This document shows, piece after piece, positions 1-24,790 of a stretch of 64,000 nucleotides of DNA (position 1 is the stretch's first letter; each line of letters begins with the position of its first letter). Both the position numbers and the translations under genes were made by a program. The stretch comes from Candidatus Spongiisociaceae bacterium. Lineage in GTDB: Bacteria; Actinomycetota; Acidimicrobiia; Spongiisociales; Spongiisociaceae. Under the pieces are notes generated by a model. It saw only the letters and a program-made list of their open reading frames with translations, was not told the DNA's origin and ran no database searches. The DNA lies in NCBI GenBank assembly GCA_965262915.1, contig OZ253564.1, positions 288,001 to 352,000 on the forward strand. The letters run 5' to 3'.

Positions 1-542
1 GCCCGACCGAGTATGGCTAGGGCGTCGCGATGGGCCAGGTCATCGAACGTTTCCAGGGCTGCAGGGTAGTACTCGCGCAGCGCGTTGCGCATCTGGTTGG
101 TGTGGCGGGTCCGCGCCCAGATCAGGTTCTGATGGGCACGGGCCATGATCTTGATGCCGTCCGCGTCTGGGCTGTCCCCGGCTACCGGACGGTGGTTGTG
201 ACGGTCGGTTCGTACCAGATCGGCTAACACCTTGGCGTCTCCTCGGTCTGATTTGGCTCCACCCTGGCGGTGACGGTCCCGGTAACGGGAAACTGCCATC
301 GGGTTGATCGCATACACCTGATAACCCGCCCCGACCAGAGCACCGACCCACAGACCACGGTCGGTCTCGATCCCTACCACCACCTCGGCCGCATCCGATG
401 CGTGTTTGGCGACCATCTCGTGCAAGCGGGCCACACCCGCCAGGCCCTCCGGTAGACGGGAGAACCCCAGGCGGGCTCCCTCCTCGTCCAGCAGATACAC
501 ATCGTGATGTCCCTCAGCCCAGTCGTTACCCACAAAGATCAT
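1..542 (-). CDS. IS110 family transposase (element A), 5' part, runs off the window edge
   Basis: Manual translation from ATG at 542: MIFVGNDWAEGHHDV...GIETDRGLW...AKSDRGDA (DEDD RuvC-like motifs); close paralogue of the gene starting at 3367. Confidence 0.92.
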   Translation of the reverse strand, partial: MIFVGNDWAEGHHDVYLLDEEGARLGFSRLPEGLAGVARLHEMVAKHASDAAEVVVGIETDRGLWVGALVGAGYQVYAINPMAVSRYRDRHRQGGAKSDRGDAKVLADLVRTDRHNHRPVAGDSPDADGIKIMARAHQNLIWARTRHTNQMRNALREYYPAALETFDDLAHRDALAILGR

Positions 543-559
543 CCTTCGCCCCTTCCTTG

Positions 560-786
560 CGCGGGTCCACTCTCTGCTGAGCTGTGGAGAACGCCTGGCG
601 GCGACCTAGCAGATCAGTGCTCTGTGGCACGCCACCCCCTCAGCGCTACAAGCAGCCCTCACTCACCGGCCGGGGCACGATCTATCAGCAGGAATCAACG
701 TTCCAGGAGCCTGGAGTACTCACCGGCCAGCCAGCTCAACCACCACACCCTCCCAGAAACACCGGCAGAAGTGGTGGACCCCCATT
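560..786 (-). ncRNA. Predicted IS110 bridge RNA in the non-coding left end of element A
   Basis: ~230 nt leader conserved with 3385-3609; internal AGGAGCCT (705-712) is identical to the element's flank (787-794). Confidence 0.7.
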
Positions 787-882
787 AGGAGCCTTGTGGA
801 AGGTCCGCACCGTGAGTGTACTGTCCGCCGCTTCTTGCCAGGAACCCGTTTTGGTAAACGGTAGTCCACGGGGAGGTGGTTC

Positions 883-2112
883 ATGTCGGAGGATCGGGTT
901 GATGTTTTCGGTGGGGTTGACACCCATCGGGACACGCATGTCGCGGCGGTGGTCGATGGCGTCGGTCGGGTGGTCGGCTCCGAGCCGTTCGGGGCCGACC
1001 ACACCGGATATAGGCGGATGGCGGCGTGGATGCAAGCGAAGGGGCAGCTGGTCCGAGTCGGGGTGGAAGGAACGGGTAGCTACGGCGCGGGGCTCGCCCG
1101 TTACCTGACCGAGGCGAACATCGAGGTGGTCGAGGTCATGCGTCCCAACCGGCAACTACGCCGCCGGAAGGGCGGCAAGACCGACAGCGTCGACGCCGAG
1201 GCGGCAGCCCGGGCGGCCGCCTCAGGTGAAGCAACCGCAGTTCCCAAATCCGGTGTGGGACCGGTCGAGTGTCTCCGGATGCTGCTGGCCGCCCGCCGCT
1301 CCGCGACCAAGGCCCGCACCCAGGCCGCCAACCAGATCCACGCCCTGGTGGTCACCGCCCCAGAGCCGATAAGACACCAACTGGCGGGCAAGAAACTCAG
1401 AGCACAGGTCAAGGTGTGCGCCCGCTGGCGTCCCGGCGAAGCACAGACCACCGTCGCGTACGCGAAAAGGGCGCTGCGCCACCTGGCCCGCCGATACCAG
1501 ACCCTCGAGGTCGAGATCACACAACTCAAGCGCGAGATCAGAGGTCTATGCGCCCAGGCCAACCCGGCGCTGCTGGGCGCCCCAGGCGTCGGCCCTGACA
1601 CAGCCGCCGCGCTGCTGGTCGCTGCCGGCGACAACCACGGGCGAATGAAATCGGAAAGGTCGTTCGCAGCGTTATGCGGATCCAGCCCCGTGCAGGCATC
1701 ATCAGGCCAGACAGTGCGGCATCGTCTCAACCGGGGAGGCAACCGCAAAGCCAACAACGCTCTGTGGCGGATAGCCACCACCCGGATACACAACGATGCC
1801 CGCACCCAAGCCTATGTAGCCAAACGAGAAACCGAAGGCAAGAACCGCAAAGAGATCATCCGCTGCCTCAAGCGGCACATCGCCCGAGAAATCTACCGGC
1901 TCATCACCAACCCGCCCCCAACCCCGGACTACACCCGCCTGCGCGCCCTACGCCAACAAGGAGGCATCACCATCACCCAGGCCGCCGAAGAACTCCGAAC
2001 CCGCCCGGCCCGTATCTCAGAACTAGAACTCGGCCGCAACCACAACCACCAGCTAGCAACCCAATACCAGAGGTGGCTCCGAACCCGCCAACCGGCCCCG
2101 TCCCCGATTTGA
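883..2112 (+). CDS. IS110 family transposase (element B) with C-terminal XRE-like HTH
   Basis: GGVDTHRDTH, GVEGTGSYG, KTDSVDA, SSG..RHRLNRGGNR motifs; right end TTGACA-ACCATAGGAGCATC. Confidence 0.95.
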   Translation: MSEDRVDVFGGVDTHRDTHVAAVVDGVGRVVGSEPFGADHTGYRRMAAWMQAKGQLVRVGVEGTGSYGAGLARYLTEANIEVVEVMRPNRQLRRRKGGKTDSVDAEAAARAAASGEATAVPKSGVGPVECLRMLLAARRSATKARTQAANQIHALVVTAPEPIRHQLAGKKLRAQVKVCARWRPGEAQTTVAYAKRALRHLARRYQTLEVEITQLKREIRGLCAQANPALLGAPGVGPDTAAALLVAAGDNHGRMKSERSFAALCGSSPVQASSGQTVRHRLNRGGNRKANNALWRIATTRIHNDARTQAYVAKRETEGKNRKEIIRCLKRHIAREIYRLITNPPPTPDYTRLRALRQQGGITITQAAEELRTRPARISELELGRNHNHQLATQYQRWLRTRQPAPSPI

Positions 2113-2149
2113 CAACCATAGGAGCATCCCCAGGCGCGTAATTGTCAAG

Positions 2150-3367
2150 CTGCGGCTTGGTTGATGGTGGTTCGGTGTGCCCAGGCGGTGTGTTCGTTGT
2201 GGGGGGTTTGGTGTTTGAGGCAGCCGTGGAGGATGCCTACGAGTCGGTTGGCTAGGGCTCGTAGTGCTTGGTGGTGGAGGTCGCCTGCTGCTCGTTTCTG
2301 GTCGTAGAAGGCTCGGGCTCCTGGGCTTGGGGTTAGGGAACAGAACGCCCATTGGTCCAGGGCGTTGGGGAGACGCCGCTTTTCGGACGTGGCGGGCGAC
2401 GACGGCGTGTTTGCGGCCTGACGCGATGGTGATGGGCGACGTTCCGGCGTAGTTTCTGCGAGACTTGGCGCTGGTGTAACGGTGGGGGTCGAACCTCGAA
2501 CTCACCGAGCGCCCGGGCGCCGAGCACAGTACCGAGTCCTGGCTGGGAGAGGTAGATCACGGCGTCCGGGTGCTGCTCAAAACGGGTCTGGAGGGTCGCT
2601 TCGAGTTCGGTGATCTGGCGGTTGGTTTCCACAATGATCCTCACCAATGACGCGACCGTCGCCCCGTAGGCGTCCTCGACCCGCCCAGCTGCTCTGAGAT
2701 GGGCGCCTCGTAAACCCGCTTGGATACGGCGGGCGGTCGCATCGAGGTTGCGTTGCCGTCCACCTCTTTTGAGCGCAGCCCGGATCTGGGTGATGGTCAG
2801 GCGGGCCCCTGTGCTGGGGGTGGGTGCCCGACCCAACACGGCTAGGATGTCGCGATCTGCCAGGTCCCCGAAGGTTTCAAGGGCTGCCGGATAGTATTCA
2901 CGTAGCGCGTTGCGGACCCCGTTGGTGTGGCGCACCCGAGCCCAGATCAGGTTCTGATGCGCTCGTGCTGTGATCTTGATGCCTTCCGCCCCGGGGCTGT
3001 CGCCAGCCACTGGACGATGATTGTGACGGTCGGTGCGTACCAGATCCGCTAACACCTTGGCGTCCCCGCGGTCGGACTTGGCTCCGCCCAGGCTGTGACG
3101 GTCCCGGTAACGGGACACCGCCACCGGATTGATTGCATACACCCGATAGCCGGCTGCGACCAGCGCGGCGACCCAAAGGCCGCGATCGGTTTCGATCCCT
3201 ACCACCACCTCTCCAGCATCCGATACGTGCTTGGCGACCATCTCATGCAACCTGGCTACACCTTCCAGGCCTTCTGGTAGACGCCGGGCAGCAAGTTTGG
3301 TTCCACCCTCGTCCATCAGACACACATCGTGATGTGCCTCAGCCCAGTCATCTCCCACAAAGATCAT
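2150..3367 (-). pseudogene. IS110 family transposase (element C), frameshifted near 2500 and 2390
   Basis: MIFVGDDWAEAHHDV N-terminus; the C-terminal NYAGTSPITIASG motif lies in another frame (ORF 2053..2505). Confidence 0.88.
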
Positions 3368-3384
3368 CCCTTATCCTCCCTTGC

Positions 3385-3609
3385 TCGGGCCTGCTCTTGC
3401 TGAGCTGTGGAGGAAACGCCTGGCGGCGACCTAGCAGATCAGTGCTCTGTGGCACGCCACCCCCTCAGCGCTACAAGCGGCCTCACCAACCGGCCGGGGT
3501 ACGATCTATGTTCAGGAATCAGCGTTCCAGGAGCATTCGGTACTCACCGGCCGGCAGCTCAACCACCACACCCTCCCAGAAACACCAGAAGAAGTGGTGG
3601 ACCCACATT
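3385..3609 (-). ncRNA. Predicted IS110 bridge RNA in the non-coding left end of element C
   Basis: Conserved with the element A leader; internal AGGAGCAT (3529-3536) and CTATG (3506-3510) correspond to the two flanks (3610-3617 and 2117-2121). Confidence 0.75.
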
Positions 3610-4086
3610 AGGAGCATCCGGGGCGGTTCATTCATGTGAGGTGGTCTGCGTTGCCCAGGGTCGAGGCCGCCATCGCCTAGGCTCGGCCCTACCGGGACTG
3701 CGGGTTTCGGGTCCGGCATCCAGTACTACCCATGGGCGTTCGCGATGGCGCAAAACGCCAGGTCAAAGGGAAGCGTGCGCGGAATCATGCGCGCATGGGT
3801 CGAAACGCGCACGCCCCGCGGCTGCGTTTGGGTCTGCATTGACCGAGCAGGCGTTCGGCGGCCTTGTCGAATCCAAAGGGAGGTCACTTTTTGAAACAGC
3901 GGGGCGGGGGCGGCAAGGCAAATGATATCTCACCTTGAACAATACTTTGTTTAATTACGTATTTGTAATTACAAAAATGTATGGTTGCGCACAGAAGATA
4001 GTCTCGACTAAACTCTAGCCCAAAGAGATCGGAGACTTGACATATCCTGATACCTGTGCTATTAGAAGGAGAGGAGGTGCCCGCCG

Positions 4087-4329
4087 ATGTCGGAAAAATC
4101 AGAAGCACATCGTAATTACGAAGTTTTCGCCAGACTGTTGCCTGACTTGGCGGAGACCCATGCTGATAAGTGCGCTCTGTTGCACGATGGTGAGTTGGTC
4201 GAGATTTTTGATACCAACGCTGATGCACGATTTGCAGGGAGGACACGATTCGGCAGAGGTAAATTCTCGGTACAACGGATAACTGCTCGTCCGGCTGACC
4301 TGGGATGGTTCTCCCATGTATCGGCATAG
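4087..4329 (+). CDS. Small DUF5678-like protein
   Basis: Strong RBS GAGGAGGT; 80 aa with NYEVFARLLPDL..H.DK.ALLHDGELV pattern; overlaps the next gene. Confidence 0.65.
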   Translation: MSEKSEAHRNYEVFARLLPDLAETHADKCALLHDGELVEIFDTNADARFAGRTRFGRGKFSVQRITARPADLGWFSHVSA

Positions 4330-4726
4330 CGGGACGTGGACGGAACGAGACGGCGCTATTATAGAGGTAGGACTCTTCGTCGGGGAATGGAGGGCCTTCG
4401 AGGATATACCCCGATTCCAGGCGATGATTGATACAGGGGCCGAGGAAACCTGCATCTCGAGAACAGCAGCCGCCTTGCTGGGGATACGCGACGAACCGAT
4501 AAGCATTCGTCGCGTATCCACGCCCGGCGGAGCGGCCGAACTCAATGTCTACGAAGTCAATCTGGTGTTTTTCTTAGACCCGTCATATCTCCAAATGCGC
4601 GAACAGGAAGTGGTAGAAACCAAATCTGACGCGGATCAGTGGGATGTCCTGCTAGGGCGGGATATCCTCAAGGACGCGATCTTCTTTATGGACTTTTCCG
4701 GTCGATTCACCCTTGCCTATGCCTGA
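4316..4726 (+). CDS. Retropepsin-like (clan AA) aspartyl protease
   Basis: AMIDTGAEETCIS catalytic motif and LLGRDIL motif. Confidence 0.88.
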   Translation: MYRHSGTWTERDGAIIEVGLFVGEWRAFEDIPRFQAMIDTGAEETCISRTAAALLGIRDEPISIRRVSTPGGAAELNVYEVNLVFFLDPSYLQMREQEVVETKSDADQWDVLLGRDILKDAIFFMDFSGRFTLAYA

Positions 4727-5088
4727 GTCTTCGTCTGACCCTAGGTCTAATTCGCGACGTAGTTCCCTGCGACTTGGCCCGAGCCCAGGGGAGCAACCCA
4801 GCAACAGTTGGGCGAGCGGATGGGCATCTCTCCCCAGGCAGTCCATCACTACTGGACATCCCGGTAGCACCCAGCCTGTTGCCCTGCTGGGTGGCTCTGA
4901 TGTGTGATGATCGGAACTGGTTGTTCACCTGGGGTCGGCAGCGCTCAGCCAGCCTATTACTGAGATAGCCCCCTGTGGGGTGTGATATCATCGCGGTGGT
5001 TGGATGCCAGCAGACCGCCTAGTCTTCCGATGACGATTCTGCTCACCGCCACCGACTTTCCAACCGCAGACTGTGACCGTTGATAAGC

Positions 5089-5105
5089 GGCTCTTCGGAA
5101 ATGAG
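5089..5105 (+). repeat. ISL3-type terminal inverted repeat, interrupted by a mini-element
   Basis: GGCTCTTCGGAAATGAG is identical to the ISL3 ends at 23358 and 57071. Confidence 0.75.
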
Positions 5106-5301
5106 ATGCTTCTATGTGTCTATCAGGTCACATCCGCTTCGAAGCCGAACCCCGCCCCGGACCGGGGGACAGGCCGACAGATCCCCAGCAAGGCAACACA
5201 CGCGCCGGTGTCTAGTCGGGTCAGACCCGCCCCCCGGTCACAGGGGACCACCCCGATCATCGCAGCAGCCCCCAAGAAAACAGGGCACCCTCCAGTATGA
5301 G
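5102..5301 (-). mobile_element. ~200 bp non-autonomous IS110-like mini-element, copy 1
   Basis: Highly similar to 53505-53699 in inverted orientation; TGAG repeated at both ends; no credible ORF. Confidence 0.65.
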
Positions 5302-5419
5302 TGATTTTCGCTGGTCGCCATCAGGGACTCTGGTCGTGGGCGGCGCCCCGGTGCTGGTGTGAGCCGCAGTCGGCGCCGCGGCGGCAGTGGTGGGCGCCGC
5401 GGCCGTTCTGGCCGGTCGA

Positions 5420-8200
5420 TCACAAATGGGTGACGTTGTATTCGATTCCGAGCTGGCGTAGGCCTTCTTTGACAGTCAGGTCGAGAGTGTTTTGCTTGAT
5501 GCCCTCGGGGTGGGAGGCGTTGATGGTGAGGGTGACTGTGACGGAGGCTCCGGTGGCTACAAGCGGTGAGACGGCAACCTTGACGACGTCGCGGATCCTG
5601 TCGGCGGGGACCTGGCTTGCGGTGACGACCACGCTGGTTGGGTCACCAGTCGGGTGAGTCTCTTCATGGTCGCTGGGGTGTGTGCTCTTTGATCCGGCGT
5701 GAGTTTCTGTGGTGGTGGAGGTCTCGCTGTTGGAACTTGGCTGGTCTTTAGGTGTGTGGTCGCGGATCAATTTGGTGATGGCGGCGGCTCGAACTAGCCA
5801 GGTGCCGAGTTGGAACTGGATCTCTGAGGGGTCGATGTCGGTGTTGAAGCGACGCACGGCGTCTGCTGCGTACCAGGTGGCTCCTGATGCGAGCCCGAAG
5901 ATGCCGTTGGTGGCGCCGCGGGCGAGGCAGTCTCTGAGCACGTCGGTGCTGGCGAGTTTGGGCAGGCGAGGCAGGCGGTAGAAGTAACTGAGCAGTTTGT
6001 GCAGCTCGACGGCTTCGTTGTCGGGGCCGATCAGGCCGTAGCGTTCCGATAGCAGCGCGGCCGGCGCCAGCTTAGCGAGCGCCAGCCGTTGGCCGGTGGT
6101 GAGGTGTTCGATGACGCGCTTGGTGATCGTGTCGCTGCCTCGGGCGGGGCCGAGATCGACAAGGTTGAAGCGGATGCCGCCGTTGCCGTTGGGGCCGAGT
6201 GTTGCCAGGTGCCGGTAGGCCATGACGACGAGTCGTGGGAGGCTGGCTTCGGCGTCTCTGAGACGCGCCGCGAGCTGTTCCTTCTGTTCTTGGTTGAACC
6301 GCTTGAGCCGCGTGTGGTCGTTGGTGATGTCTCTCATGGCGGCGAGAGTGCGGGCGGTCTGACGCGCCCTGGATATGCCGACGCTGTCGGCGGCGACGAC
6401 GACTAGAGCGTTCTTGTTGACTCGGGCAGAACTGCCCCGGTTGTTGAGGATCTCTTCGGCGGACGCGCGCCCGTCTCCGTCGATGGCTAGTTCTGCGCTG
6501 AGAATGGCCAGAGTGAGGCGGGGTTCGTCCGCGACGTCCATCGTCTCCGCGACATTCGTGTTGACGCGAAACGGCTCCAGCGTGGGAGCCGCGACAGCGG
6601 TGGCTTCTCGGAACAGTTGCAGGATGCGGCCGTCACTGACGGCTCCTTCCCGCTCGACTATGACCTTGTTGAGGTTCGGTTCGGTTGTGAACCGGTAGCG
6701 GTCGCCTTCTTGGCGCATGTACCAAAGCGACCCGGCGAGCGCGTCGCGCACGTCTTCGATGATGCCCCGCGAGAGACCCGGCCGGCCGACGCCGATGAGC
6801 ATTTGAGCTGCGGAGGCTCCTAGGACCCGGTCGGAGCCGAAGCTGTGCAGGAACGCCGACGTGGCGAGCCCTACCGCAGCGCGGTGCCGAGCAATGTCGC
6901 CTCCGCGTCGGCGGTCCTCTTCGACAGCTTTGGAGTCGCCTCGGATGATGTCGGCGTTCAGCGCCGACTTGTAGGACTCCCCGGCGAAGCGGATGATCTC
7001 GGCCCGCACACCGGCGTCGTCGAGGGGCACGTCGCCGCAGCAGATGAGCGTTCCGGCGTGTTGGCGCAGCGTCAGGGCCTTCACGGTGTGAGCCAGCGTC
7101 CGGAGCGCCCCGCGGGTTCGCTGGAAACCCGACAGCGACCCCCAGCGGTTGGTCAGGATGTCGATCAGTTCGGGATGGAAGGGGTAGGAACTGACGATTC
7201 GGCTCCTGTAGGCGGGGTCGCGGTAGGACTGTGGCACAACGTCGCCCAGCTGTTCGTAGTAGGCGCCGTAGGCGTCGGCCACGGCCTGCCGCTCCGCTAG
7301 TTCACCGACTGCCTCGAACAGACGCGTGTGCAGGATCGGGAAGATGTCGTCGCCCTCGACGGGAGTGACGATGTTCTCGGTGCGTCCCACCACTTTGGAG
7401 AGCCGCTCGAACATCTCTTCTCCGGAGAGGGACGAGTAGTCCTCAAGCCGTGACGAGGTCAGGGTGGCCACGATCGCCGCACCGGGAACGTTCGCGGCGG
7501 CCGTGCAGAGTTCCTTGATGACGGTGAGGGTGGTTCCGGCCAGGTTCCCGTCGCCGACTCTCACCGACAGCGCCTTGTTGAGGTACTCGAGGGTCTCGTC
7601 GAGCAGAACGAGGCACGGCGCGGAGTTCTGTAGCAGCCGCACGATCTCAGGGGTGGAAGTCCCGAGCAGCCTCTCGTCTTGGTCGCGTATCTGGGCGTGC
7701 GCCGAGGAGCCGCCAAGCTGCCACGCCAGATGCCCGAGCAGCGAGTGAACCCGCGTTCCGTCGGGCATCTGTTCTGGAGTGACGCCGAGAGCGGAGCCGT
7801 CGAGCACAGCCACATTCGCCTTTGGGAGCGTCGCGGCCTTGAGTGCGCCGACGACTTGTCGGCCCAGCGGCGTGCGGGCCACCTGGTGCGGATCGCGGAA
7901 GAGGTGGTAGGCCGCGAGGAGAGTGTGGGTCTTGCCTCCCCCGAACTCGGTCTGCATCCGGTGAACCGCAGCAGACGAGGTGTCGCCGGCGAGGCGGTTG
8001 CCGATCTCGACGAGAGCGGCCTGCAGGGGCTCTGTGAGGTAGGTTTTGTCTGCGAAGATCTTGGGGTCGAGATAGTCCTTGGGGCCTAGGCCGCGGGCGG
8101 CGAGTCCCAGGTCGGCGGCGAATAGCGACTCGTCGAAGGAGCCGTCGCTGATGTCGGTGTGCGGCCGGGCGACTTCAAGCCATGGTCTCAGGTCGGTCAT
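5420..8200 (-). CDS. DUF499 AAA+ ATPase (HmaC / Gao RL-type)
   Basis: PW..VARPH.DI..G.FDES.FAADL N-terminus, FGGGKTH Walker A, LLDE Walker B, YPFHP, FQRTRGALR. Confidence 0.9.
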   Translation of the reverse strand: MTDLRPWLEVARPHTDISDGSFDESLFAADLGLAARGLGPKDYLDPKIFADKTYLTEPLQAALVEIGNRLAGDTSSAAVHRMQTEFGGGKTHTLLAAYHLFRDPHQVARTPLGRQVVGALKAATLPKANVAVLDGSALGVTPEQMPDGTRVHSLLGHLAWQLGGSSAHAQIRDQDERLLGTSTPEIVRLLQNSAPCLVLLDETLEYLNKALSVRVGDGNLAGTTLTVIKELCTAAANVPGAAIVATLTSSRLEDYSSLSGEEMFERLSKVVGRTENIVTPVEGDDIFPILHTRLFEAVGELAERQAVADAYGAYYEQLGDVVPQSYRDPAYRSRIVSSYPFHPELIDILTNRWGSLSGFQRTRGALRTLAHTVKALTLRQHAGTLICCGDVPLDDAGVRAEIIRFAGESYKSALNADIIRGDSKAVEEDRRRGGDIARHRAAVGLATSAFLHSFGSDRVLGASAAQMLIGVGRPGLSRGIIEDVRDALAGSLWYMRQEGDRYRFTTEPNLNKVIVEREGAVSDGRILQLFREATAVAAPTLEPFRVNTNVAETMDVADEPRLTLAILSAELAIDGDGRASAEEILNNRGSSARVNKNALVVVAADSVGISRARQTARTLAAMRDITNDHTRLKRFNQEQKEQLAARLRDAEASLPRLVVMAYRHLATLGPNGNGGIRFNLVDLGPARGSDTITKRVIEHLTTGQRLALAKLAPAALLSERYGLIGPDNEAVELHKLLSYFYRLPRLPKLASTDVLRDCLARGATNGIFGLASGATWYAADAVRRFNTDIDPSEIQFQLGTWLVRAAAITKLIRDHTPKDQPSSNSETSTTTETHAGSKSTHPSDHEETHPTGDPTSVVVTASQVPADRIRDVVKVAVSPLVATGASVTVTLTINASHPEGIKQNTLDLTVKEGLRQLGIEYNVTHL

Positions 8201-8216
8201 GGGTCGGGCGCCTTCC

Positions 8217-10871
8217 TCATTGGGTGAACAGTTCGCCTTGGGCGGTAGCTTTGCCTGCTTGGGCGGTCGCTTGGCGCGTGAGGCGCTCTTGGCTGGTTGT
8301 TAGCGACTGGTACATGGTGCGCTCTCGGTCGCCCTCGGGCAGCAGTTCGCTCAAGACGCGTGCGAGATCCCAGAATCCGGGAGCGTCGCCGTAGCCGGAC
8401 GCGGCTAGGAGGTCCACGACGTCGGCTGGCCGCCCGGCGTCCCACAGTTGTGCGGCGATGTGCAGCAAGTCGATGATCGGGGCGTCGGGCCTGACACGGA
8501 TGTTTCTTCGCTGGTGCGGTCCGAGCAGGGAGAACTTCTTGCCGGAACGGTGGATCATCCCCCCTGGGTGGGTCGCGTCGTCGAGGCCGACGGAGAAGGC
8601 TCGGGAGAGTTTGATCGCTTCGTCGTCGGGTATGGGAACCGTAAGGTACGCCCAACGCCAGCTCACATAGAGCAGTGACCACTCGTCGAGCATACCGAGG
8701 GCCTCGGGACTCAGCAGTCGTCCCATGGCGTGGCGGGCGACGGTCTTGCGGGCGAGTTCCATCAGATCGCCGACGGACACTTCTGTGCCGTCGAGCCGGA
8801 TCACGCTGCGGTGGCGTGCGAACACCTCGAAGGCCGGCCCGACCGCGGACACGAAGTAGTCGGCGCCGTGCAGGCCCATGTCCTCAAAGGAGTCGAGCCG
8901 CTCATGCACGACCCGGTCGAGTTCCGCGTCGACCTCGTCGTAGAAGGCGTCGCCGGCTTTCCGCAGCGGGCGGCACACGAGCACGACGGAGCTGCCCAGC
9001 GCTGCCCTGACATGAGCGACCGGGCGGCCCACCATCTCGGAGCGGATCGGCCACGACGTTGTGACGCCCAGCCCGGCGACGCGCAACGCCAGCAGCAGCT
9101 TCTCCCAAGCCTTGACGTTGGTGTGGGCAAAGACGATGGCCACGACGCCGTCGGGTTTCACGACGCGGGCCACCTCGGAGAGGGCGTTGCCGAGGCGCCG
9201 GTCGAAGTCCTCTTCGGTTATGTGGCCGCTCATGCCCGGGCGGCACCGGTTCTGCACGACCTCTTGGGCTTTGGGCGTCCAGGGCGTGGCGAAATGCTCG
9301 GGGTACAGGTGCCCGACGCTTCGCTTGAGCCACATATAGAAGAAGTCCGACAGGTCGGAGTACATGACCGAGAAGTAGTAGGGCGGGTCGATGAGCACGG
9401 CGTCGAACTCGCCGTCTGCGAAGGGCATCGCCTGGGCGTTGCCGCGCAGCACTGTCGCGGGCCCGTCACCTGCCTGTGCGCAATGTTCGATGACCTTGCA
9501 GATCGCGGCGACAGCGCCGTTCCAGGATCCTGAGCCGGTGCGGAACGGGTAGTTCTCGCAGAAGTCCCAACGCATCTGCACCGTCTGGCCGGGAAATGTC
9601 CCTCGAATCTTCTCGCCGCCCGTCTGCCAGCTGGAGAAGGCGGAGTTGCGGTCGGCGACCTTGTCGAGAGCGAAGGCCAGATAGGTCGCGACCGCCCTGG
9701 CCCGGTGGGGGTCCATGCCCTCGTCCAGCATGGCGGCATGCGCGTCGCGGATAGCAGCGGCGAGCGTCGCGAACAGCACGAGCTGGCGGTCGGTGAACAC
9801 CGACCGCCACGTCCGGTAACCGTAGGGCAGGAACTGCAGATTCCTGTAGCCGATCTGGTCGACCGCTTCGTCGGGGAGGCGGGAGGTGCCGTCGTCGAAC
9901 TCGGCGCTCTCGAGGGCAGCGGCCTCGGCGCCGGCGAGCACCGGCCCCTCCAGTTCGACGGAGGTCGGGCTGCGATAGGTTCGGATGCGGCCGTTGATGT
10001 CGCACACGGCGTAGAGCCTGTAGCCGAAACCGTTGTCGCGGCCGTGCTGTTTGACGTCTTGCTGGGGTGCTGTGATGCCCGTGATGGGGCAGGTGACGCT
10101 GCCCGCGGACTCGAAGCCCTCCTTGAGGGTCGGATCGTTGGGCAGTTCGCCCTGGTGCACGTCGATGTTGACGCCTTCGGGCCCGGCGGATGTGGTCACC
10201 CAGGCGTTGCGCCGGGCCGACGCGAGGAGACGGGAACTGAGAATAGGGATCTCGGCATCGAGGTTCGGATCCGGGCTCGGCATAGTCCGCACCCAGAAGT
10301 AGTACGGCGCCGGGCCGCTCTGACCCTCTGCGATGGGGTACAGGCGGTCGACGGTTCGGCGTGTTCGCTCCGCCGTCCAGTCCGCCCATCGTTGCACGTC
10401 CACGGCGAGGGCGTTGCGGCCCCTTGTGTCGTTGTCCCGGTACCGTTGCGGGTAGTCGAGGCACGCCAACTCGATGAGGTACGCGACGGGGTTGAGGTCC
10501 ATCGCTGTCGTGTCGCATCCGAGTCGCAGCGCCTCCAGCGGGATCGCGCCGCCGCCGGCGAAGCAGTCAAGCACCTTCGGGCCGCCCGGCGCTGTGGCCC
10601 TGATGCGCTCGCGCAGCCACTTGATCCCTTGATTGTTGGGGAGCTCCTTGGTGGCCATGGCCTGCGCGATCTGCTTCTCGGCCTCGGCTGCGTCGCCGCT
10701 GCTGTCGATCAGAGACGCGGCTGCCACGGCTCTGGCCATGGGCAGGGGCCGACGTGCCCACCAGGTGTGCATCGTGGAGATGTGCCCGTCGTGGGTTCGC
10801 TTGTCGGTGTCGGACGCGTCGTTGATCGCCGGCAGCGGCAGCGTCTCCTCGATCAGCCTCTTTGTGGTCAT
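8217..10871 (-). CDS. DUF1156 DNA amino-methyltransferase
   Basis: MHTWWARRPL, DCFAGGGAIPLEA (motif I), DPPY (motif IV). Confidence 0.92.
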   Translation of the reverse strand: MTTKRLIEETLPLPAINDASDTDKRTHDGHISTMHTWWARRPLPMARAVAAASLIDSSGDAAEAEKQIAQAMATKELPNNQGIKWLRERIRATAPGGPKVLDCFAGGGAIPLEALRLGCDTTAMDLNPVAYLIELACLDYPQRYRDNDTRGRNALAVDVQRWADWTAERTRRTVDRLYPIAEGQSGPAPYYFWVRTMPSPDPNLDAEIPILSSRLLASARRNAWVTTSAGPEGVNIDVHQGELPNDPTLKEGFESAGSVTCPITGITAPQQDVKQHGRDNGFGYRLYAVCDINGRIRTYRSPTSVELEGPVLAGAEAAALESAEFDDGTSRLPDEAVDQIGYRNLQFLPYGYRTWRSVFTDRQLVLFATLAAAIRDAHAAMLDEGMDPHRARAVATYLAFALDKVADRNSAFSSWQTGGEKIRGTFPGQTVQMRWDFCENYPFRTGSGSWNGAVAAICKVIEHCAQAGDGPATVLRGNAQAMPFADGEFDAVLIDPPYYFSVMYSDLSDFFYMWLKRSVGHLYPEHFATPWTPKAQEVVQNRCRPGMSGHITEEDFDRRLGNALSEVARVVKPDGVVAIVFAHTNVKAWEKLLLALRVAGLGVTTSWPIRSEMVGRPVAHVRAALGSSVVLVCRPLRKAGDAFYDEVDAELDRVVHERLDSFEDMGLHGADYFVSAVGPAFEVFARHRSVIRLDGTEVSVGDLMELARKTVARHAMGRLLSPEALGMLDEWSLLYVSWRWAYLTVPIPDDEAIKLSRAFSVGLDDATHPGGMIHRSGKKFSLLGPHQRRNIRVRPDAPIIDLLHIAAQLWDAGRPADVVDLLAASGYGDAPGFWDLARVLSELLPEGDRERTMYQSLTTSQERLTRQATAQAGKATAQGELFTQ

Positions 10872-13800
10872 GGCCGGGCCTCGGATGCGTCGATGACTGG
10901 CTGTGGGGCCACCCGGTAACGCACATCGAGGGTGGACGCCCAGGCATCCGCGAGGGACTTGACCGGGTTCTGGACGCGGTACAGGCGCGGTCGCGGGCTG
11001 GCGCAGTCCAACACGACGTATAGCCAGTAGCCGTCCCCGAGCTCGATTGCCTTGGCAAACTCAGACCAGGTCAACTCGACCGATCCGACGCCGGCTCGTC
11101 CTTTGACCTCGATGCGGCGCCGCTGAACGCCCTTCACCGACACCAGATCGAATCCGACGTTGTCGGATTCGACGGATTGCACCTGCGCGCCGCGCACCTC
11201 GGTCTCGTACCTCACAACGACTCCAACAGCGACCTGCTCGATCTCGCGGTTCGAGTGCATGGCGGCTCCACCGCCAGGGGTCTGTTGATTCTGGTCGGGG
11301 CGACCCGAGGCGTCTGTGGGCAGCAACAGTGCCCTTGCGAAGATCCGCACCGGTCCCCGTCTGACGTTGCGGGCTCGTCGTACCTCGCTCAGCCGGCGGT
11401 TGCGTCGTGTCTCGATCTCCTCTCGGGTCAGTTCAGCCTGACGCAGCCGCCCCTTGGACCCAATAGCGCCCCTTTGGACTTCGGCGTCAAGACCAAACAG
11501 GGTTTCCTGCTGCCGGCTCAACATCACCCTGAACGCATTGGTGAGGTACTCCTCGGCGATGGCGGTAGTGCGTTCGCGCTCTGATCGCGCCCTCTGGTAA
11601 CGACGCTCGAACTCGTGGCCTCGCGCCCATCCGGTAACGACCTCATCGCCCGGGGCCTGCACATGCGGTGTCTCGCCCGTGTGATCGATCAGGTCATAGA
11701 GCAGGATCCGCTCCGAAGCCAGAGTCCCGCCGAGCGGCTCGGTGATCGAGGCGAACGCCCGGTGCACGACCTCGCCGTTGCCGTCGATGCTGTCTCCAGT
11801 GACGAAGTACACGACTGTGGGAGAAGCGATGTCGGATGCGCAGAACGCGGCTCCGGCTTCGACATCGGCGCGGGTCTGTTCGACGACCGCGTCGAGGGCG
11901 GCGTCGAACAGCGGGTGCCCAGGGCCGCACAACTCCGCTTCGGGCGTGGCCGTTGCGGCGGCGTCGCCGGGACGCAGAGCGACAGCCCGGTCAAAGGTGA
12001 GCCGTTCGTAAGTTGGGAAGATCTCGCGAGTGGCGCCAGCCAGCCGCGAGGCGGCTACGAGTTGATCAGGCGTGCGGGTAACTCGAAGGGTGTGGTCGAG
12101 TCTGTGGGCCACGTGTCCGCCGAGGAAGTCCACTGCGTCACGGAAGAACCGCTCGACGTAGCCCGCGGGCAGACGCCGATCAGTGGCTCGCGCCGCGGAG
12201 TCCGCTTGCGCCTGCCAGTTCAGGTGGTGCGTAGCCAGCGCCTTGGCGGTCAGCGTCCGGAACTTCTCCTCTATCTGCGGGTCGATGGTGTCGCCGCCGA
12301 GTTCGTCGATTGCCTGCTGTTGGGTGACTTCCCCCGCGAGGACCTTCTCGATCAGAACGGCGAGGTGCGTACCTGCGAAGATCTCTCCGATCACGTCGAA
12401 CACGCTCTCGCCGAGTGTCTCGGCCATGTTCTCCAGCTTGCGTAGCAACGTCGCCAGCACGGCGCCCTCGCGGGTGTTCATCGCCACGAGGTTGTAGATG
12501 TGCACGTCGCGTGTCTGCCCGATGCGGTGTATGCGGCCCATCCGCTGTTCGAGACGGTTCGGGTTCCATGGGATGTCGTAGTTGACCATCAAGTGGCAGA
12601 ACTGCAGGTTGATGCCTTCTCCCGCTGCTTCTGTGGCGACCATGATCTGTGCCTGTTCGCGGAACTGCTTCTCCGCGGCGATGCGGTTTCGCAGCCTCAG
12701 CCCGCCGTGGATGACCGCCACCTCAAAGCCCTCAACGTCGAGCCTCTCGGTAAGAAAGTCAAGGGTGTCTTTGTGTTCGGTGAAGATGAGCAGCTTGACG
12801 GAACGGTCCTGACGGAGGCCTAGCTTGTCGAGGACACTGAGCAACTCGTTCAGTTTGATTTCGGTGCCTGCCGCCTCGGTCTGCTCGGCCTGTGCCAGCA
12901 GGGGCCGCAACACTTCGAGTTCGTCCCGCAACTCCTCCACCGTGCTGGGCAGCCATTCCTCGAGGGCTCGCTCCTCCAAGTCCCACCTCTCTTGCTCGGC
13001 GAGGTCGGCCAGTGCCTCCGAGTCGCCTCCATAAACCTGTAAAATGAAGTCCCTGAGGTTCCGCACGTATGTCTCGGGATCATCCAGCGCCCGCTCGAGG
13101 CGGGCGATACGACGTTGCAGGGTCCGCTTGATTGCCCGCACCGACGACGCCAGACGGCGCTGCATGATTGTGAGCGCGAATCCGGCCACCCCTCGAGTCG
13201 CGTTGCCGCGGATGCGGGCCAGTTCCGTGGACACGAATCGGGTCACCGCCTCATACAAATCCAGCTCAGCACCGGACAACGAATAACTGACTGTGTGGGG
13301 ATGGCGAGGCTTGAACAGCTTGTTGCCCGCCATGTCCACCATCTGCTCTTTGGGGACCTTCCGATAGTGCTGAGGGCTCAAGTCGATCGGGCCGGTCGGG
13401 CAGACATCTCCGTAGGCGTCACGGTCCACGAGGCGCAGCAGCCCCCACAGCGACGAGTTGCGCCCCGAATGCGGGGTAGCCGTCAGACAGATCAACCGGT
13501 GCGTTCTCTCAGCCACCTGCTCCGCTGCTTGGTAGCGGTCGCTGCGCTTGTTCACCCGCCCATCAGCGCCCACCTGCAGCGTGTAGCCGTGAGCCTCGTC
13601 CAGAATCGCCAGGTCCCAGCGCTTGTCAGCTGCACAGAATGCGGCCAAGACCTCCTCGCGCTTGAGCCAATCACGCGACACGATCACGAAGTCGTGCAGA
13701 TCCCAGGGATTTTGGGTCGGGTTCGCGTCGAACGTCGAAGCATCGAACTGTACGCAGTGGATATCGAAGCGCTCAGCTAGCTCGCGCTGCCACTGAGGGC

Positions 13801-14302
13801 GAAGATTCGCAGGCGTCACGATAAGCACCCGATCCGCGGCGCGGCGCAGCATCAACTCCTTGATGAACAGACCGGCCATGATCGTCTTGCCCGAGCCCGG
13901 GTCGTCTGCCAGCAGAAAGCGCAGAACGGGCTCCTCCAAGAACACCCCATAGACAGCGTCAAGTTGATGAGGCAGCGGAGATATCCGCGACACCGCCAAC
14001 CCCGGCATATCGTGACGGAAGGCGTTCTCGATCCGCCACGCCTCAACACCGAGACGGAACCGGCGCGGGTCGCCGTCAAACAACGGGCCCGTCGCCGAGC
14101 CGATGATCTCGATCCCGGCAAGCTCGTCCTCAGGAAGCGTCACCTCCCCGAAACCGCCCGACAGGCCGCGGAACACGAACTCCCAGAACGGGCCCTGCCG
14201 AACGCTGACCAGCGTCACAGCAGCCTCATCACCCGGAAAACGCACACGCGCGTCGGGCGTTAGCCGCAAGGGGTCAAACATCCCCAGAGTATGACATAGC
14301 AC
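10868..14302 (-). CDS. SNF2-family helicase with C-terminal DUF3883 nuclease domain
   Basis: LLADDPGSGKT, DEAH, LTATPH, QRMGRIHR; C-terminal GFDL..IEVKGR PD-(D/E)xK motif. Confidence 0.92.
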   Translation of the reverse strand: MLCHTLGMFDPLRLTPDARVRFPGDEAAVTLVSVRQGPFWEFVFRGLSGGFGEVTLPEDELAGIEIIGSATGPLFDGDPRRFRLGVEAWRIENAFRHDMPGLAVSRISPLPHQLDAVYGVFLEEPVLRFLLADDPGSGKTIMAGLFIKELMLRRAADRVLIVTPANLRPQWQRELAERFDIHCVQFDASTFDANPTQNPWDLHDFVIVSRDWLKREEVLAAFCAADKRWDLAILDEAHGYTLQVGADGRVNKRSDRYQAAEQVAERTHRLICLTATPHSGRNSSLWGLLRLVDRDAYGDVCPTGPIDLSPQHYRKVPKEQMVDMAGNKLFKPRHPHTVSYSLSGAELDLYEAVTRFVSTELARIRGNATRGVAGFALTIMQRRLASSVRAIKRTLQRRIARLERALDDPETYVRNLRDFILQVYGGDSEALADLAEQERWDLEERALEEWLPSTVEELRDELEVLRPLLAQAEQTEAAGTEIKLNELLSVLDKLGLRQDRSVKLLIFTEHKDTLDFLTERLDVEGFEVAVIHGGLRLRNRIAAEKQFREQAQIMVATEAAGEGINLQFCHLMVNYDIPWNPNRLEQRMGRIHRIGQTRDVHIYNLVAMNTREGAVLATLLRKLENMAETLGESVFDVIGEIFAGTHLAVLIEKVLAGEVTQQQAIDELGGDTIDPQIEEKFRTLTAKALATHHLNWQAQADSAARATDRRLPAGYVERFFRDAVDFLGGHVAHRLDHTLRVTRTPDQLVAASRLAGATREIFPTYERLTFDRAVALRPGDAAATATPEAELCGPGHPLFDAALDAVVEQTRADVEAGAAFCASDIASPTVVYFVTGDSIDGNGEVVHRAFASITEPLGGTLASERILLYDLIDHTGETPHVQAPGDEVVTGWARGHEFERRYQRARSERERTTAIAEEYLTNAFRVMLSRQQETLFGLDAEVQRGAIGSKGRLRQAELTREEIETRRNRRLSEVRRARNVRRGPVRIFARALLLPTDASGRPDQNQQTPGGGAAMHSNREIEQVAVGVVVRYETEVRGAQVQSVESDNVGFDLVSVKGVQRRRIEVKGRAGVGSVELTWSEFAKAIELGDGYWLYVVLDCASPRPRLYRVQNPVKSLADAWASTLDVRYRVAPQPVIDASEARP

Positions 14303-17460: not shown

Positions 17461-17859
17461 CTAGGTGTCGTAGACGGTGCTGATGGCGGTTTCGTGCTGA
17501 GGACACCAGAAGAAAGCCAGGTGGAAGGCGTCCACCAGATCCCAGGCCTGGATCCTCAGATTGGGGGGAGCCTCCTCATCCTGTGACAGGATGATCAACT
17601 CGAATAGCAGCGCCCTGGCATGGTTCAGGGGATAGTCAGGCTGCGCGGCCTCCCGCCTGTCGAGCTCCTCACAGATGACGCGGGCAGCTTGAGCCACATC
17701 GAAAAGAGTCAGGTCAGTGCCCCCAGTCCGGTTGATGTCAGCAATGATCTCCTCCACCAGAGCATTACGGGCCAACGGGTCCTGTTTCCAGGCGTCCGGA
17801 TCACCGCAGCTGGTGAGGGTGAGGACGCCGACCAGGACCAGGGTGATTAGTCGGAACAT
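17461..17859 (-). CDS. Putative lipoprotein
   Basis: Signal peptide with lipobox LTSC. Confidence 0.72.
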   Translation of the reverse strand: MFRLITLVLVGVLTLTSCGDPDAWKQDPLARNALVEEIIADINRTGGTDLTLFDVAQAARVICEELDRREAAQPDYPLNHARALLFELIILSQDEEAPPNLRIQAWDLVDAFHLAFFWCPQHETAISTVYDT

Positions 17860-18069
17860 GCGTAGCAGGTTACCCCCCAGCGTTCCAGGTCCCGTCGGTC
17901 CACACAGTTACCAAACGCTCTGACTGCGTAGAGGAACAGAAACCACACCAGTGAGTCCGTCCGTTGCCCTCCCCATGCCGACCAGCACCAACACCCGAGG
18001 TTGAGGCTCAGGATCCCACGATTCGTACCACCATCAGAGCGGCTCAAACGGTTGAGTTTACAGCAAAGC

Positions 18070-19506
18070 GGCTCATCGATTTCAGTGGGGAGTGACCGAT
18101 GCGAGGAGGTCCCAGTTGGGTTTCCCCGCGTAGAGGAGGGCCCGGATTCGGTAGTTCGCGAAGTTGGGTAACCCGAACGCGATGCGTTTGATCCGTTTGA
18201 TGAGGTTGTTGAGGGCTTCGGTGGCATCTGTTGGTTACCTTGGGTGATGTGCCAGTTGGTGATCTGGGGGGTCCAGCGGGCGATGGTGCGACCTAGCTTG
18301 TTGATCTCCGGTGGGCAGGATTCGTCCTGGAGGTCGTCTGCGAGCTGGAGGGTGTATCGGAGAGCAAGGACCGGACTTTCGATCCCGTAGATGCCCCGTA
18401 CCGTTTCCTTCGCGTGCCAGGCGGTGCGTACCTCCCCGTAGGGGTCACCGGCATCGAGGAGACCACGCAGCCGGGTTTGACCGCGGTCGCTGATCCTCTC
18501 GGAAGCGGCGGTTAGGAGCCGCCGTATCCGATACAGCGGGTCATCCTTGCGGCCTCTGTGTCCCAGGGTTTCGTTCTGGACTCTTCGTCGTAGGTCGTCG
18601 AGTCGCTGGTTGGCCAAGCGGATGACGTGGAAGGGGTCTGCTACCTGCACAGCGTTGGGGAGCACCCGGTTATACGCCTTCCGATAAGGCCCTGACATGT
18701 CCGACACCGCCCAGCGGATCCCGTCGAGCCACTCGGGGGGCTGGGATCGGAACCAGGCTGCGGCGCTATCAGCCGTTCTACCACCGACTATGTCGAACCG
18801 GCTGGTGGCCCCCCACGTCGACGACAGAAGTGCACCAAACCTTGGTTCGCCACCGGCCTTTCCGCCAGAACAACGACTCTTGTCGATGCCCACAGCTCCG
18901 ACCTCGCCTATCCGATCGGTGTCGGCCCCCAGGAGGGCTTCGCCCCAGCGGACGACCTCGTTGTTCACCGTATGCCAATCACAACCAAGCTCCGCGGCGA
19001 CCTCGTCGACCGGACGGCCCCGCCCACCCACCCCGACGGTCACCCACCGGGCCGCTCGGGATGTCAACAACGCCCGTTGGGGACCAATCGTGGGGTCTTG
19101 CTCGATGAACGACCTGATCGCACAGTCGGTGTTCGGGCACGTCCACCGCCGTTTCCGCCACCGCAGCCGAACCGGACGGCCGAACGCCGGTAAATCCACC
19201 AACACAACCGTTCTGTGACCCTTCGACCACACCGGGCCGCCACAGGACTCACACAACGGGCGGGCCTTGCGGGACCCGATCACCACCCCAAGCGGTGCAC
19301 CCTCGCCCGGGTCGTTGATCCCTACCAGATCAACGTCGCCCAGGCCTACCAACTTCTCGCACATGCGCGTAGGATCAGCTTCCACAGGGGTCCTCCTGCC
19401 TCGGATGTCATTGCTGAAGTCCGATTATGGAGGACCCCCCATCACTTCTGGTGGATTACCACTCCCCCTAGCAGATCCCCGACTCCCCACTCATTTCCGA
19501 AGAGCC
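18070..19506 (-). mobile_element. ISL3 family IS, copy 1 (frameshifted transposase)
   Basis: GGCTC...GAGCC ends; near-duplicated flanks CAGCAAAGC / CACAAAGC; homologous to 23358-24790. Confidence 0.92.
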
Positions 19507-23357: not shown

Positions 23358-24790
23358 GGCTCTTCGGAAATGAGTGGGGAGTAGGGGATCTGCCAGGGGG
23401 AGTTGGAATCCACCAGAAGTGAGGAGGGGTCCTCCATAATCGGGTGTTGGTAATGACATCCGAGGCAGGAGGACCCCTGTGGAAGCTGATCCTACGCGCA
23501 TGTGCGAGAAGTTGGTAGGCCTAGGTGAGGTTGATCTGGTAGGGATCAACGACCCGGGCGAGGAGGCACCGTTGGAGGTGGTGATCCGGTCCCGCAAGCC
23601 CCGGCCGTTGTGTGAGTCCTGTGGCGGGTCGGTGTGGTCGAAGGGCTATCGGACGGTTGTGTTGGTGGATTTACCGGCGTTCGGCCGGCCTGTGCGGCTG
23701 CGGTGGCGGAAACGGCGCTGGACATGTCCGAACCCCGACTGTGCGCTCAGATCGTTCATCGAACAAGACCCCAAGATTGGTCCCCAACGGGCGTTGTTGA
23801 CATCCCGAGCGGCCCGGTGGGTGACCATCCAGGTGGGTGGGCGGGGCCGTTCGGTCGACGAGGTCGCCGCAGAACTTGGTTGTGATTGGCATACGGTGAA
23901 CAAAGAGGTTGGCCGCTGGGGCGAAGCGCTGCTGGAAGCAGACACCGATCGGGTCGGGACCGTCGAAGCTGTGGGAGTGGACGAGACGTTGTTCTGGCGT
24001 CGGGGCCGTTGGCGTACCAAAGTCTGGTGCACCTCTGTCGTCGACGTTGGCGGCCACCAGCTGATCGACATAGTCCCTGGTAGAACAGCAGAAAGCGCCG
24101 CAGCCTGGTTCCGGTCACAACCCACCGAATGGTGTGAGGCTATCCGCTGGGCGGTGTTGGACATGTCCGGTTCGTATCGGAAGGCGTATGACAGGGTGCT
24201 GCCGCACGCGCTGCAGGTAGCGGACCCGTTCCACGTCATCCGCCTCGCCAACCAGCGTCTCGACGAGGTACGACGAAGAGTCCAAAACGAAACCCTCGGG
24301 CATCGAGGCCGCAAGGATGACCCGCTGTATCGGATACGGCGGCTCCTAACCGCTGCGCATGAGAGGATCAGCGACCGGGGTCAAATACGGCTGCGTGGTC
24401 TCCTCGATGCTGGTGACCCCTACGGGGAAGTGCGCACAGCCTGGCACGCGAAAGAGACGGTACGAGGCATCTACGGGATCGAGAGTCCGGTCCTTGCTCT
24501 CCGATACACCCTCCAGCTCGCAGACGACCTCCAACACGAATCCTGCCCACCCGAGATCAACAAGCTGGGTCGTACCATCGCCCGCTGGACCCCCCAGATC
24601 ACCAACTGGCACATCTCGAAGGTAACCAACGGACCCACCGAAGCCCTCAACAACCTCATCAAACGGATCAAACGAGCAGCGTTCGGGTTCCGCAACTTCG
24701 CGAACTACCGAATCCGCGCCCTTCTCTACGCGGGGAAACCCAACTGGGACCTACTCCCATCGGTCACTCCCCACTGAAATCCGATGAGCC
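23358..24790 (+). mobile_element. ISL3 family IS, copy 2 (intact)
   Basis: IRs GGCTCTTCGGA / TCCGATGAGCC; perfect 8-bp TSD AATAAACT. Confidence 0.96.
23479..24777 (+). CDS. ISL3 family transposase
   Basis: Zinc finger CESC...CPNPDC, GVDET, DPFHV, TNGPTEALNNLIKRIKR. Confidence 0.96.
   Translation: MEADPTRMCEKLVGLGEVDLVGINDPGEEAPLEVVIRSRKPRPLCESCGGSVWSKGYRTVVLVDLPAFGRPVRLRWRKRRWTCPNPDCALRSFIEQDPKIGPQRALLTSRAARWVTIQVGGRGRSVDEVAAELGCDWHTVNKEVGRWGEALLEADTDRVGTVEAVGVDETLFWRRGRWRTKVWCTSVVDVGGHQLIDIVPGRTAESAAAWFRSQPTEWCEAIRWAVLDMSGSYRKAYDRVLPHALQVADPFHVIRLANQRLDEVRRRVQNETLGHRGRKDDPLYRIRRLLTAAHERISDRGQIRLRGLLDAGDPYGEVRTAWHAKETVRGIYGIESPVLALRYTLQLADDLQHESCPPEINKLGRTIARWTPQITNWHISKVTNGPTEALNNLIKRIKRAAFGFRNFANYRIRALLYAGKPNWDLLPSVTPH

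Follow-up and report, generated by a model that had tools for sequence, protein, structure and literature searches.

In the insertion sequence (IS) IS621, the first loop of a bridge RNA reads the target and the second reads the donor (Durrant et al. 2024, PMC11208160). The same source names repetitive extragenic palindromic (REP) elements as the targets of IS621 and Tn21-family terminal repeats as those of IS4321 and IS5075; the targeting of repeats by IS110 elements, and of Tn21-family ends by IS1111-group elements, is in that sense already known. Half-match insertion has been reported for IS621, tandem modules and matches on one side only have been reported for IS110 elements, and recurrent insertion into occupied IS110 loci has also been described (Xie et al. 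2026, 10.64898/2026.08.31.748434; Hu et al. 2026, 10.64898/2026.08.14.744561). Here we describe a nest of three IS110-family elements, A (minus strand), B (plus strand) and C (minus strand), at the start of a 64,000-nt stretch of a Candidatus Spongiisociaceae genome (positions 288,001-352,000 of a single 5.06-Mb contig; hereafter the window). As judged from guides, ends and flanks, the nest probably consists of RNA-guided elements from two families, each apparently targeting the other's ends rather than host genes, which would have arrived in the order C, B, A. The features on which this reading draws are as follows (window coordinates).

1-786, minus strand: element A of the A/C family; left end, 247-nt leader and first 180 codons
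606-641, minus strand: predicted donor-binding loop of A; right donor guide at 606-612 (CUGCUAG), left donor guide at 632-641
682-715, minus strand: target-binding loop of A, with guides matching the flanks AGGCTC-CT and CT-ATCA
682-690: right target guide of A; plus-strand ctatcagca, GATAG on the coding strand
705-715: left target guide of A; plus-strand aggagcctgga, AGGCTCCT on the coding strand
787-788: core dinucleotide, AG on the plus strand and CT on the strand of A, at the junction of A's left end with the leader of B (placed by the 11-copy alignment)
789-2128, plus strand: right part of element B of the B family; 3' part of the donor loop, open reading frame (ORF) and complete right end
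2129-3609, minus strand: element C of the A/C family; leader at 3368-3609, right end stopping after CCTGGG(G)
3506-3539, minus strand: target-binding loop of C
3506-3514: right target guide of C; plus-strand ctatgttca, CATAG on the coding strand
3529-3539: left target guide of C; plus-strand aggagcattcg, ATGCTCCT on the coding strand
3610-3630, plus strand: left target of C; core AG (3610-3611), then GAGCATC and CGGGGCGGTTCA

Element A as a whole spans genome positions 287,302-288,786 and encodes an intact ORF of 406 aa; the hairpin GGAA-CGTTGA-TTCC separates its two target guides, and its flank inside the window is AGGCTCCT (GAGCC on the plus strand, 789-793). Genome positions 287,118-287,301, outside the window on its left, hold the left end of B and the remainder of its leader with the target-binding loop. 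Inside the window, B carries its right donor guide GTGAGTG (812-818), an intact ORF of 409 aa (883-2112) and the right end CATAGGAGCATC (2117-2128), which closes with GGAGCATC (2121-2128). The ORF of C is broken, with 344 codons open and homology continuing in two other frames, and the TGT-CT that is absent from its right end is found at genome positions 287,113-287,117, immediately left of B. Pfam identified both the N-terminal PF01548 (DEDD_Tnp_IS110) and the C-terminal PF02371 (Transposase_20) domains in B, in full-length A and in c8, a sibling of A; C showed PF01548 only, because its ORF is frameshifted. A and B also scored above the cut-off of NCBIfam NF033542 (IS110 family RNA-guided transposase). 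The proteins of A and B aligned over 118 aa at only 24.6 % identity, and on this comparison A/C and B are two distantly related IS110 families. BLAST against the genome recovered 11 full-length A/C copies (A, C and c3-c11) and 26 copies of the B family that exceed 1 kb, besides several A/C and some further fragments. A was 98-99 % identical to c8 and c9 and had identical guides, and the B-family subfamily that hosts c8 and c9 is only 72 % identical to B.

The locus resembles the described IS110-group systems, and IS621 above all, in several respects (Durrant et al. 2024, PMC11208160; Hiraizumi et al. 2024, PMC11208158). The recombinases have the DEDD and Tnp domains; the left end is long and non-coding, and in it a 5' hairpin precedes two stem-loops, each with an internal loop (here predicted); the 5' strand of each loop corresponds to the top strand of the left target or donor including the core, and the 3' strand to the reverse complement of the right half; and the A/C family has a CT core. 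TTGACA in the right ends would be a candidate -35 box of the IS110 kind. Unlike the REP elements that IS621 targets, the targets here are the right end of another IS110 family and the donor-guide segment of its bridge-RNA gene; the junctions of the B family, moreover, seem to have one shared base, C, in place of CT. As in IS4321 and IS5075, an IS110-superfamily element inserts site-specifically into the end of another mobile element, but in their case that target is the end of a Tn3-family transposon and not a fellow IS110 element or a guide-RNA gene, and reciprocal targeting is not known to have been described for them. Repeated insertion, tandem modules, one-sided guide matches and the lack of target immunity are shared with the loci of Xie et al. 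2026 and Hu et al. 2026, and the one-sided match of C and the short left-end scars described below fit the patterns given there; those reports deal with the donor halves of an element itself and the growth of cargo, and in the sections consulted cross-family guides to a donor end or donor guide are not described. Literature searches of full texts, whose supplements may list such targets, returned no paper on IS110 elements that target other IS110 elements or a bridge-RNA gene, and no description of IS110 guides aimed at the donor end or bridge-RNA donor guide of another IS110 family, nor of reciprocal guides.

Leader folds were predicted with RNAalifold from 11 A/C leaders and 11 B-family leaders, sets in which the copies are closely related and stem covariation is weak. 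The A/C leaders were predicted to form a 5' hairpin, a stem-loop with the target guides in its internal loop, and a second, donor stem-loop; the predicted fold of the B-family leaders was the same. Alignment of the 11 A/C copies placed the family ends, on the coding strand, at flank-CT/AATGGGGGTCC on the left and CCTGGGGTGT-CT/flank on the right (a slash marks the junction). The left guide of this family is the segment between GTGAGTAC and GGAACGCTGATTCC and equals the left flank including CT, and the right guide is the segment past the GGAACGCTGATTCC hairpin, whose reverse complement gives CT and the right flank. In the donor loop, the 5' strand UGGGGUG copies the right end TGGGGTG, and the 3' strand CCAUUAG is the reverse complement of the CT-AATGG left end. 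These folds agree with the first-pass annotation of the window, which had assigned the leaders a bridge-RNA layout with a same-sense left guide, a reverse-complement right guide and a CT core, and whose quoted strings were all present where it had placed them; its statement that the leaders of A and C are nearly identical and differ in one loop was not borne out, their identity being 89 % over 239 nt with differences that extend beyond a single loop. A, C and c5 have in common the right donor guide CUGCUAG (606-612 in A; region 3437-3443 in C), in contrast to c8, the 99 % identical sibling of A, which has CCAUUAG, matching the left end; the two differ by three changes within four bases. Its patchy distribution hints that copies have undergone gene conversion or that the donor loop was retuned.

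In the B-family leaders, the target loop reads GGTCTGAC, left guide, hairpin, right guide and GATCTGTCGG, and the donor loop has GACCTAATAGGAGCC in its 5' strand and GTGAGTG in its 3' strand, the latter a close but not exact reverse complement of the B left end CACTCAT. All 26 B-family right ends had the form TTGACAACCATAGGAGCATC/flank, with small variants. The motif ATAGGAGC at the right end of B recurs in the same sense in the 5' strand of the donor-binding loop, as the left donor guide, and donor guide and right end covary at an A/G position, four TGTAG leaders being paired with four CGTAG right ends. The right ends of both families contain TTGACA, 17 nt from a -10-like hexamer that would form only if right and left ends are joined; read from the aligned ends, this hexamer would be TCTAAT in A/C, and CATAAT or CATACT in B. 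From these sequences we infer that the leaders are expressed, bind the recombinases and direct the insertions.

Guides were compared with flanks across copies, a check for which the first-pass annotation had called. A itself matches its flanks at six non-core left-guide bases and four non-core right-guide bases. Scoring of 13 A/C copies in four genomes revealed that the right guide fits the copy's own right flank at 4-5 of 5 bases in all 12 copies other than C, and the left guide its own left flank at 4-6 of 6 bases in 13 rows; comparisons across classes gave means of 2.2 of 5 for the right guide (n=164) and 3.3 of 6 for the left (n=144). The agreement between guide and flank is far beyond chance. 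There are six guide classes in this genome, each with its own flanks, including GACAC, AGCAC and GGCAC, which sit inside tandem heptamer repeats, ATCA (A, c8 and c9) and ATG (C); copies in three related genomes (G002, G005 and G006) obey the same rule with further classes. In the B family, 12 of the 13 scored copies with both ends had right guides that agreed with their right flanks at 4-5 of 5 bases, the exception lying in a complex locus at 4,462,393; these 13 leave out the large b6-b22 group, which was read directly from the end and leader alignments. Copies c3-c7, c10 and c11 (e.g. genome 719,805-721,289; 1,359,844-1,361,324; 371,395-372,876) were found in CTGACAC or CTGGCAC tandem heptamers that their guides read, and the heptamer array looks like the main target of the A/C family.

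For the flank of A that lies outside the window, the first-pass annotation had predicted an end in GATAG, with GTGACCTGATAG as the probable context. As predicted, the sequence there is GTGACGTGATAG (287,290-287,301), directly followed by the right end of A, ACACCCCAGG. A sits at a CT core (GATAG/GAGCC) within the left donor guide that B carries in its donor-binding loop, and in A, c8 and c9 the flanks AGGCTC-CT and CT-ATCA equal the guides. All three copies of this lineage in the genome occupy the homologous site of a B-family leader, and in five related genomes (G001, G002, G005, G006 and G007) an A/C right end interrupts B-type leaders directly after GATAG at six loci; copies with the same loops were thus located in this one homologous site and not in unrelated targets. 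The interrupted loci of G005 and G006 look orthologous, and that of G001 shows a short left-end scar. Locus L048 of a further genome, G043, was excluded from the comparisons. Six uninterrupted leaders in the relatives read GGTAGGAGCC, GATAGGGGCC or TTGTAGGAGC instead of the GATAG site. Thirty-three leaders were compared in the genome under study (46 rows without a TAG site in the next 9 bases and one unrelated site were dropped, and four b24/b25-type leaders were added). Seven of these are GATAG leaders, of which three are occupied, two carry an ACA relic and two are intact; none of the 26 with AATAG, TATAG, TGTAG or CATAG is occupied. We infer that the A lineage is tuned to the leader copy of the B motif. 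The two relics, F1 and F2, lie within the window.

5125-5317, minus strand: F1, a solo B-type left end and leader with the guides of B (TAGACAC, CTGGGG)
53491-53701, plus strand: F2, a solo B-type leader reading GATAG, ACA and then CACTCAAACTGA, the start of a B-type left end

F2 looks like the relic of an A-type insertion that was followed by a B-type insertion into the right-end junction of A. In F1, GATAG and ACA are followed by a B-like right-end string; this string and its flank are typical of another B-like subfamily (also at genome position 523,832), and F1 may be a transposase-less mini-element or a recombinant.

The other copy of the motif appears to be the target of the C lineage. 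The guides of C predict ATGCTC-CT-ATGTT, which has six perfect matches in the genome, five of them right ends of the b23/b24/b25 subfamily of B. The left flank of C (GAGCATC plus CGGGGCGGTTCA) shares 19 identical nt with the junction at the right end of b23, an element whose right guide in turn specifies CGGGG. At genome position 4,018,496, another left end of the C lineage, equipped with identical guides, adjoins GAGCAT followed by 61 nt that are 98 % identical to the flank of another B-family member, so that both left junctions of the lineage (window 3610; genome 4,018,496) lie on B-family right-end tails followed by that member's own flank. A B-like right end at 3,392,163 carries a 9-nt A/C footprint at the same core. 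On this evidence, the C lineage targets B-family right ends, that is, the terminal copy CATAG/GAGCAT. The A/C lineages accordingly carry guides for the B motif at both of its locations, the right end and the donor-binding loop, which is what had been proposed from the window.

Where the proposal needed revision was the junction of B with C. The right end of B had been named as the target of C, which holds for the lineage given the predicted-target matches and both left junctions, and the string ATGCTCCTATG at the right side of C had been read as a B end split by C, which probably does not hold, the right end of B being complete, like those of 25 other copies. Most likely, ATGCTCCTATG is the truncated end of C abutting the intact right end of B. 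Similarly, of the claim that B is disabled at both ends, the half concerning the leader stands, and the half concerning the right end is not supported, since that end is complete and flanked by matches to B's guides; as the junctions read, only the leader of B is broken, by A.

The guides of B (TAGACAC on the left; CCCAG once the right guide is reverse-complemented) together spell out the junction at an A/C right end. The left flank of B, CATTAGACA/C, fits the left guide at 7 of 7 bases, and the right flank, C/CCCAGGCGCG, fits the right guide at 5 of 5. Joining the AG-ACA left of B to the CCCCAGGCGCG right of it restores AG-ACACCCCAGGCGCG, the consensus A/C right-end junction running into C, and the last 260 nt of C are 96 % identical to c3 and c7, both of which have the consensus end. 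Since the guides of B spell this junction and the TGT-CT that C lacks turns up beyond B, B most likely entered the right end of C. TAG-ACA/CACTCATA is also seen at F2 and in two places in G007; in one of these cases the insert shows the left guide TAGACAC. Most siblings of B have the left guide TGAAATC, the same right guide as B and right flanks CCCAGGGTTG; the sublineage of B therefore changed its left guide only. The relative states of the three elements are a decayed ORF in C, an intact ORF in B and a young A. Taken as a sequence of events, entry of B into the right end of C and later of A into the leader of B appears rather likely.

The nest could then have formed in three steps. A C-lineage element would have inserted at the CT core of a B-family right-end sequence, leaving GAGCATC and that element's flank at its left. 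B, guided by TAGACAC and CCCAG, would have inserted 3-4 bp inside the right end of C and split it into CCTGGG(G) and TGT-CT. Finally, A, with a loop that reads AGGCTC-CT-ATCA, would have inserted at the CT core in the left donor guide of B's bridge-RNA gene, parting the target loop of B from most of its donor loop. Both A/C lineages would hit B elements because the donor guide of B must be a same-sense copy of its right end, and ATAGGAGC therefore occurs twice per B element. The B sublineage, in turn, would be tuned to the junction that every A/C insertion makes beside a T (T-AG-ACACCCCAGG). Overall, the junctions, guides and flanks support core-exact RNA-guided insertion in both directions between the A/C and B families.

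Several observations sit uneasily with this reconstruction. With CT-AATGG, the inferred right flank of C, the right guide of C agrees at no more than 1 of 5 bases. The flank, CT-AATGGGCGTCCA with a perfect hairpin, resembles an A/C left end and 5' stem-loop over 55 nt, and C may have inserted, by a left-half match and a donor-like right half, at the left junction of an older element that has since been truncated; the 55-nt relic is itself weakly supported. The B-family element beside C is represented by its tail and lacks a body, and at least one deletion must be assumed. The right donor guides of A, C and c5 mismatch their own left ends, F1 carries B's guides yet adjoins a non-matching left flank, and c8 and c9, with 99 % identity in both parts, may go back to a single event that was copied as a composite. 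No Rfam family matched the leaders in a scan of L001, a stretch that takes in A and C, with Rfam 15 (E<=1), a release that may hold no bridge-RNA model; the scan otherwise gave Ms_AS-4, one tRNA and weak chance matches only. In the short contigs of runs X1, X5, X6 and X7, no contig bridged either a B-less allele (the consensus end of C joined to CT-AATGGGCG) or a C-less allele, and a search for B right ends in the loci of the relatives gave nothing useful. Lastly, an A/C right-end fragment at 4,804,8xx ends in CCTGGG-ATGCTC-CT beside unique DNA, so ATGCTC-CT ends can exist without a resident B.

That fragment bears on an alternative order in which B came first, C entered the CT core of B's right end and A entered its leader, the end of C then being a variant, GGGGATGCTC-CT. 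Three insertions suffice for this order, the guides of C would score 6 of 6 and 4 of 5 on ATGCTC-CT-ATGGT, as in every other copy, and the fragment at 4,804,8xx provides a precedent for such an end. Against it, B would have CGGGGCGG as its right flank, with which its right guide agrees at 0 of 5 bases; CGGGGCGG is the cognate right flank of the b23 subfamily, yet the left flank of B is not b23-like. The AG-ACA left of B, and two B guides that spell an A/C junction, would have to be coincidence, and the ORF of C is decayed while that of B is intact. The end region of C is only 89 % identical to the 4,804,8xx fragment, despite its 96 % identity to consensus-end copies; the fragment, which has the only ATGCTC-CT end besides that of C, is 93.7 % identical to a further one (the 1035 fragment), belongs to a different sublineage and has three G's against four, as expected if B-type elements entered each kind of end separately. 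We regard this order as rather improbable. A nest assembled with no part played by guides, through homologous recombination, duplication or chance insertion, has in its favour the IS-rich setting, with 11 full A/C and 26 B-family copies plus fragments, the likeness of c8 and c9 to a duplicated composite, and a position next to a tRNA-Ser gene among other mobile DNA. It is very hard to reconcile with junctions that are base-exact at CT cores, with covariation of guides and flanks over at least six guide classes in several genomes, and with the same site being hit in B-family leaders only 72 % identical, and we consider its probability slight.

Accepting C, B, A as the order and guides as the agents leaves two interpretations of the targeting, and the same data are explained by both. 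One is that IS110 elements aim at harmless multicopy sequence, the ends of other ISs included, and that the pattern of occupancy reflects survivorship. The heptamer-borne majority of the A/C copies accords with this, as do the REP and Tn21-family targets and the recurrent insertion into occupied IS110 loci known from the literature (Durrant et al. 2024; Hu et al. 2026). By itself it leaves unexplained the reciprocal guides for donor-recognition sequences and the restriction of hits to GATAG-type leader sites, but it fits every sequence fact, and what it rivals is the word parasitism rather than the mechanism; we give it an even chance. The other is that the two families are in RNA-guided conflict, which on present evidence seems doubtful, as does the joint set of propositions that it entails. 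These are that the A/C target loops were retuned to sequence that B cannot change freely, namely its right end and donor guide; that a B sublineage counter-retuned its left guide from TGAAATC to TAGACAC, towards the junction left by A/C insertions; that the G of GATAG, just outside the donor-guide pairing, decides susceptibility, 26 of the 33 leaders carrying another base; and that C-type guides may let an invaded A/C element excise the invader or adopt its tail as a new end, in which case traces of this would survive as the ATGCTC-CT end at 4,804,8xx and as the 9-nt footprint at 3,392,163. Parasitism, the term under which the nest was first annotated, is in this respect an interpretation.

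Short left-end scars are common in this genome. Solo 20-nt A/C left-end scars at genome positions 4,967,436, 3,825,181 and 3,719,685 end in CCACTTCT, and would arise if an internal CT acted as a false core during excision. A joint from 3299 to 4767 of L001 (side 21; contigs of runs X5 and X7) resembles the short scar form, and another runs from 3142 to 6129 (side 22); both are too short to count as evidence. Left of the nest, genome positions 286,455-287,058 contain a tRNA-Ser (TGA) gene and then a truncated retroelement-like fragment, and the nest starts where this fragment breaks off; a homologue of the fragment in G002 leads into an RVT_1-containing ORF. The 576 nt left of B consist of this fragment followed by the 55 nt of A/C-like left end and hairpin. 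A B-family body in these 576 nt was considered and rejected, local alignment with the leader of A, with b23 and with B giving noise only.

The Ms_AS-4 matches of the Rfam scan (RF02464, an Actinobacteria small RNA) were at positions 3640-3721 and 6464-6546 of L001, with 83.7 and 72.2 bits. They lie antisense inside the A and C transposase ORFs, which suggests that this family was built on an IS110 antisense segment. Three adjoining large ORFs on the minus strand at 5420-14302 match HmaC (E 8e-140), HmaB (E 1.5e-108) and HmaA (E 1.5e-186) of PADLOC, a helicase-methylase-ATPase defence system, and F1 lies just beside the end of this system. Three ISL3-family transposase ORFs (PF01610) are located at 17847-19385, 23479-24777 and 57324-58493. 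The 70 nt upstream of the B-family copy b6 also match 18078-18146, 24713-24782 and 58429-58498, and B elements of the b6 subfamily may sit beside or within ISL3 ends.

Bridge recombinases are under development as programmable genome editors, and little is known of how guides are retuned in nature. This locus and its relatives would form a natural series of retuned target loops in one family, directed to a heptamer repeat, the B leader and the B right end, with insertion outcomes that can be read base-exact from the flanks. The natural one-sided matches, short end scars and altered ends bear on off-target behaviour, and reciprocal guides would make competition between elements directly testable. 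Because a donor guide repeats, in the same sense, the end of the element that encodes it, the guide gene itself becomes a target for anything aimed at that end, which would amount to a built-in weakness of the bridge-RNA system.

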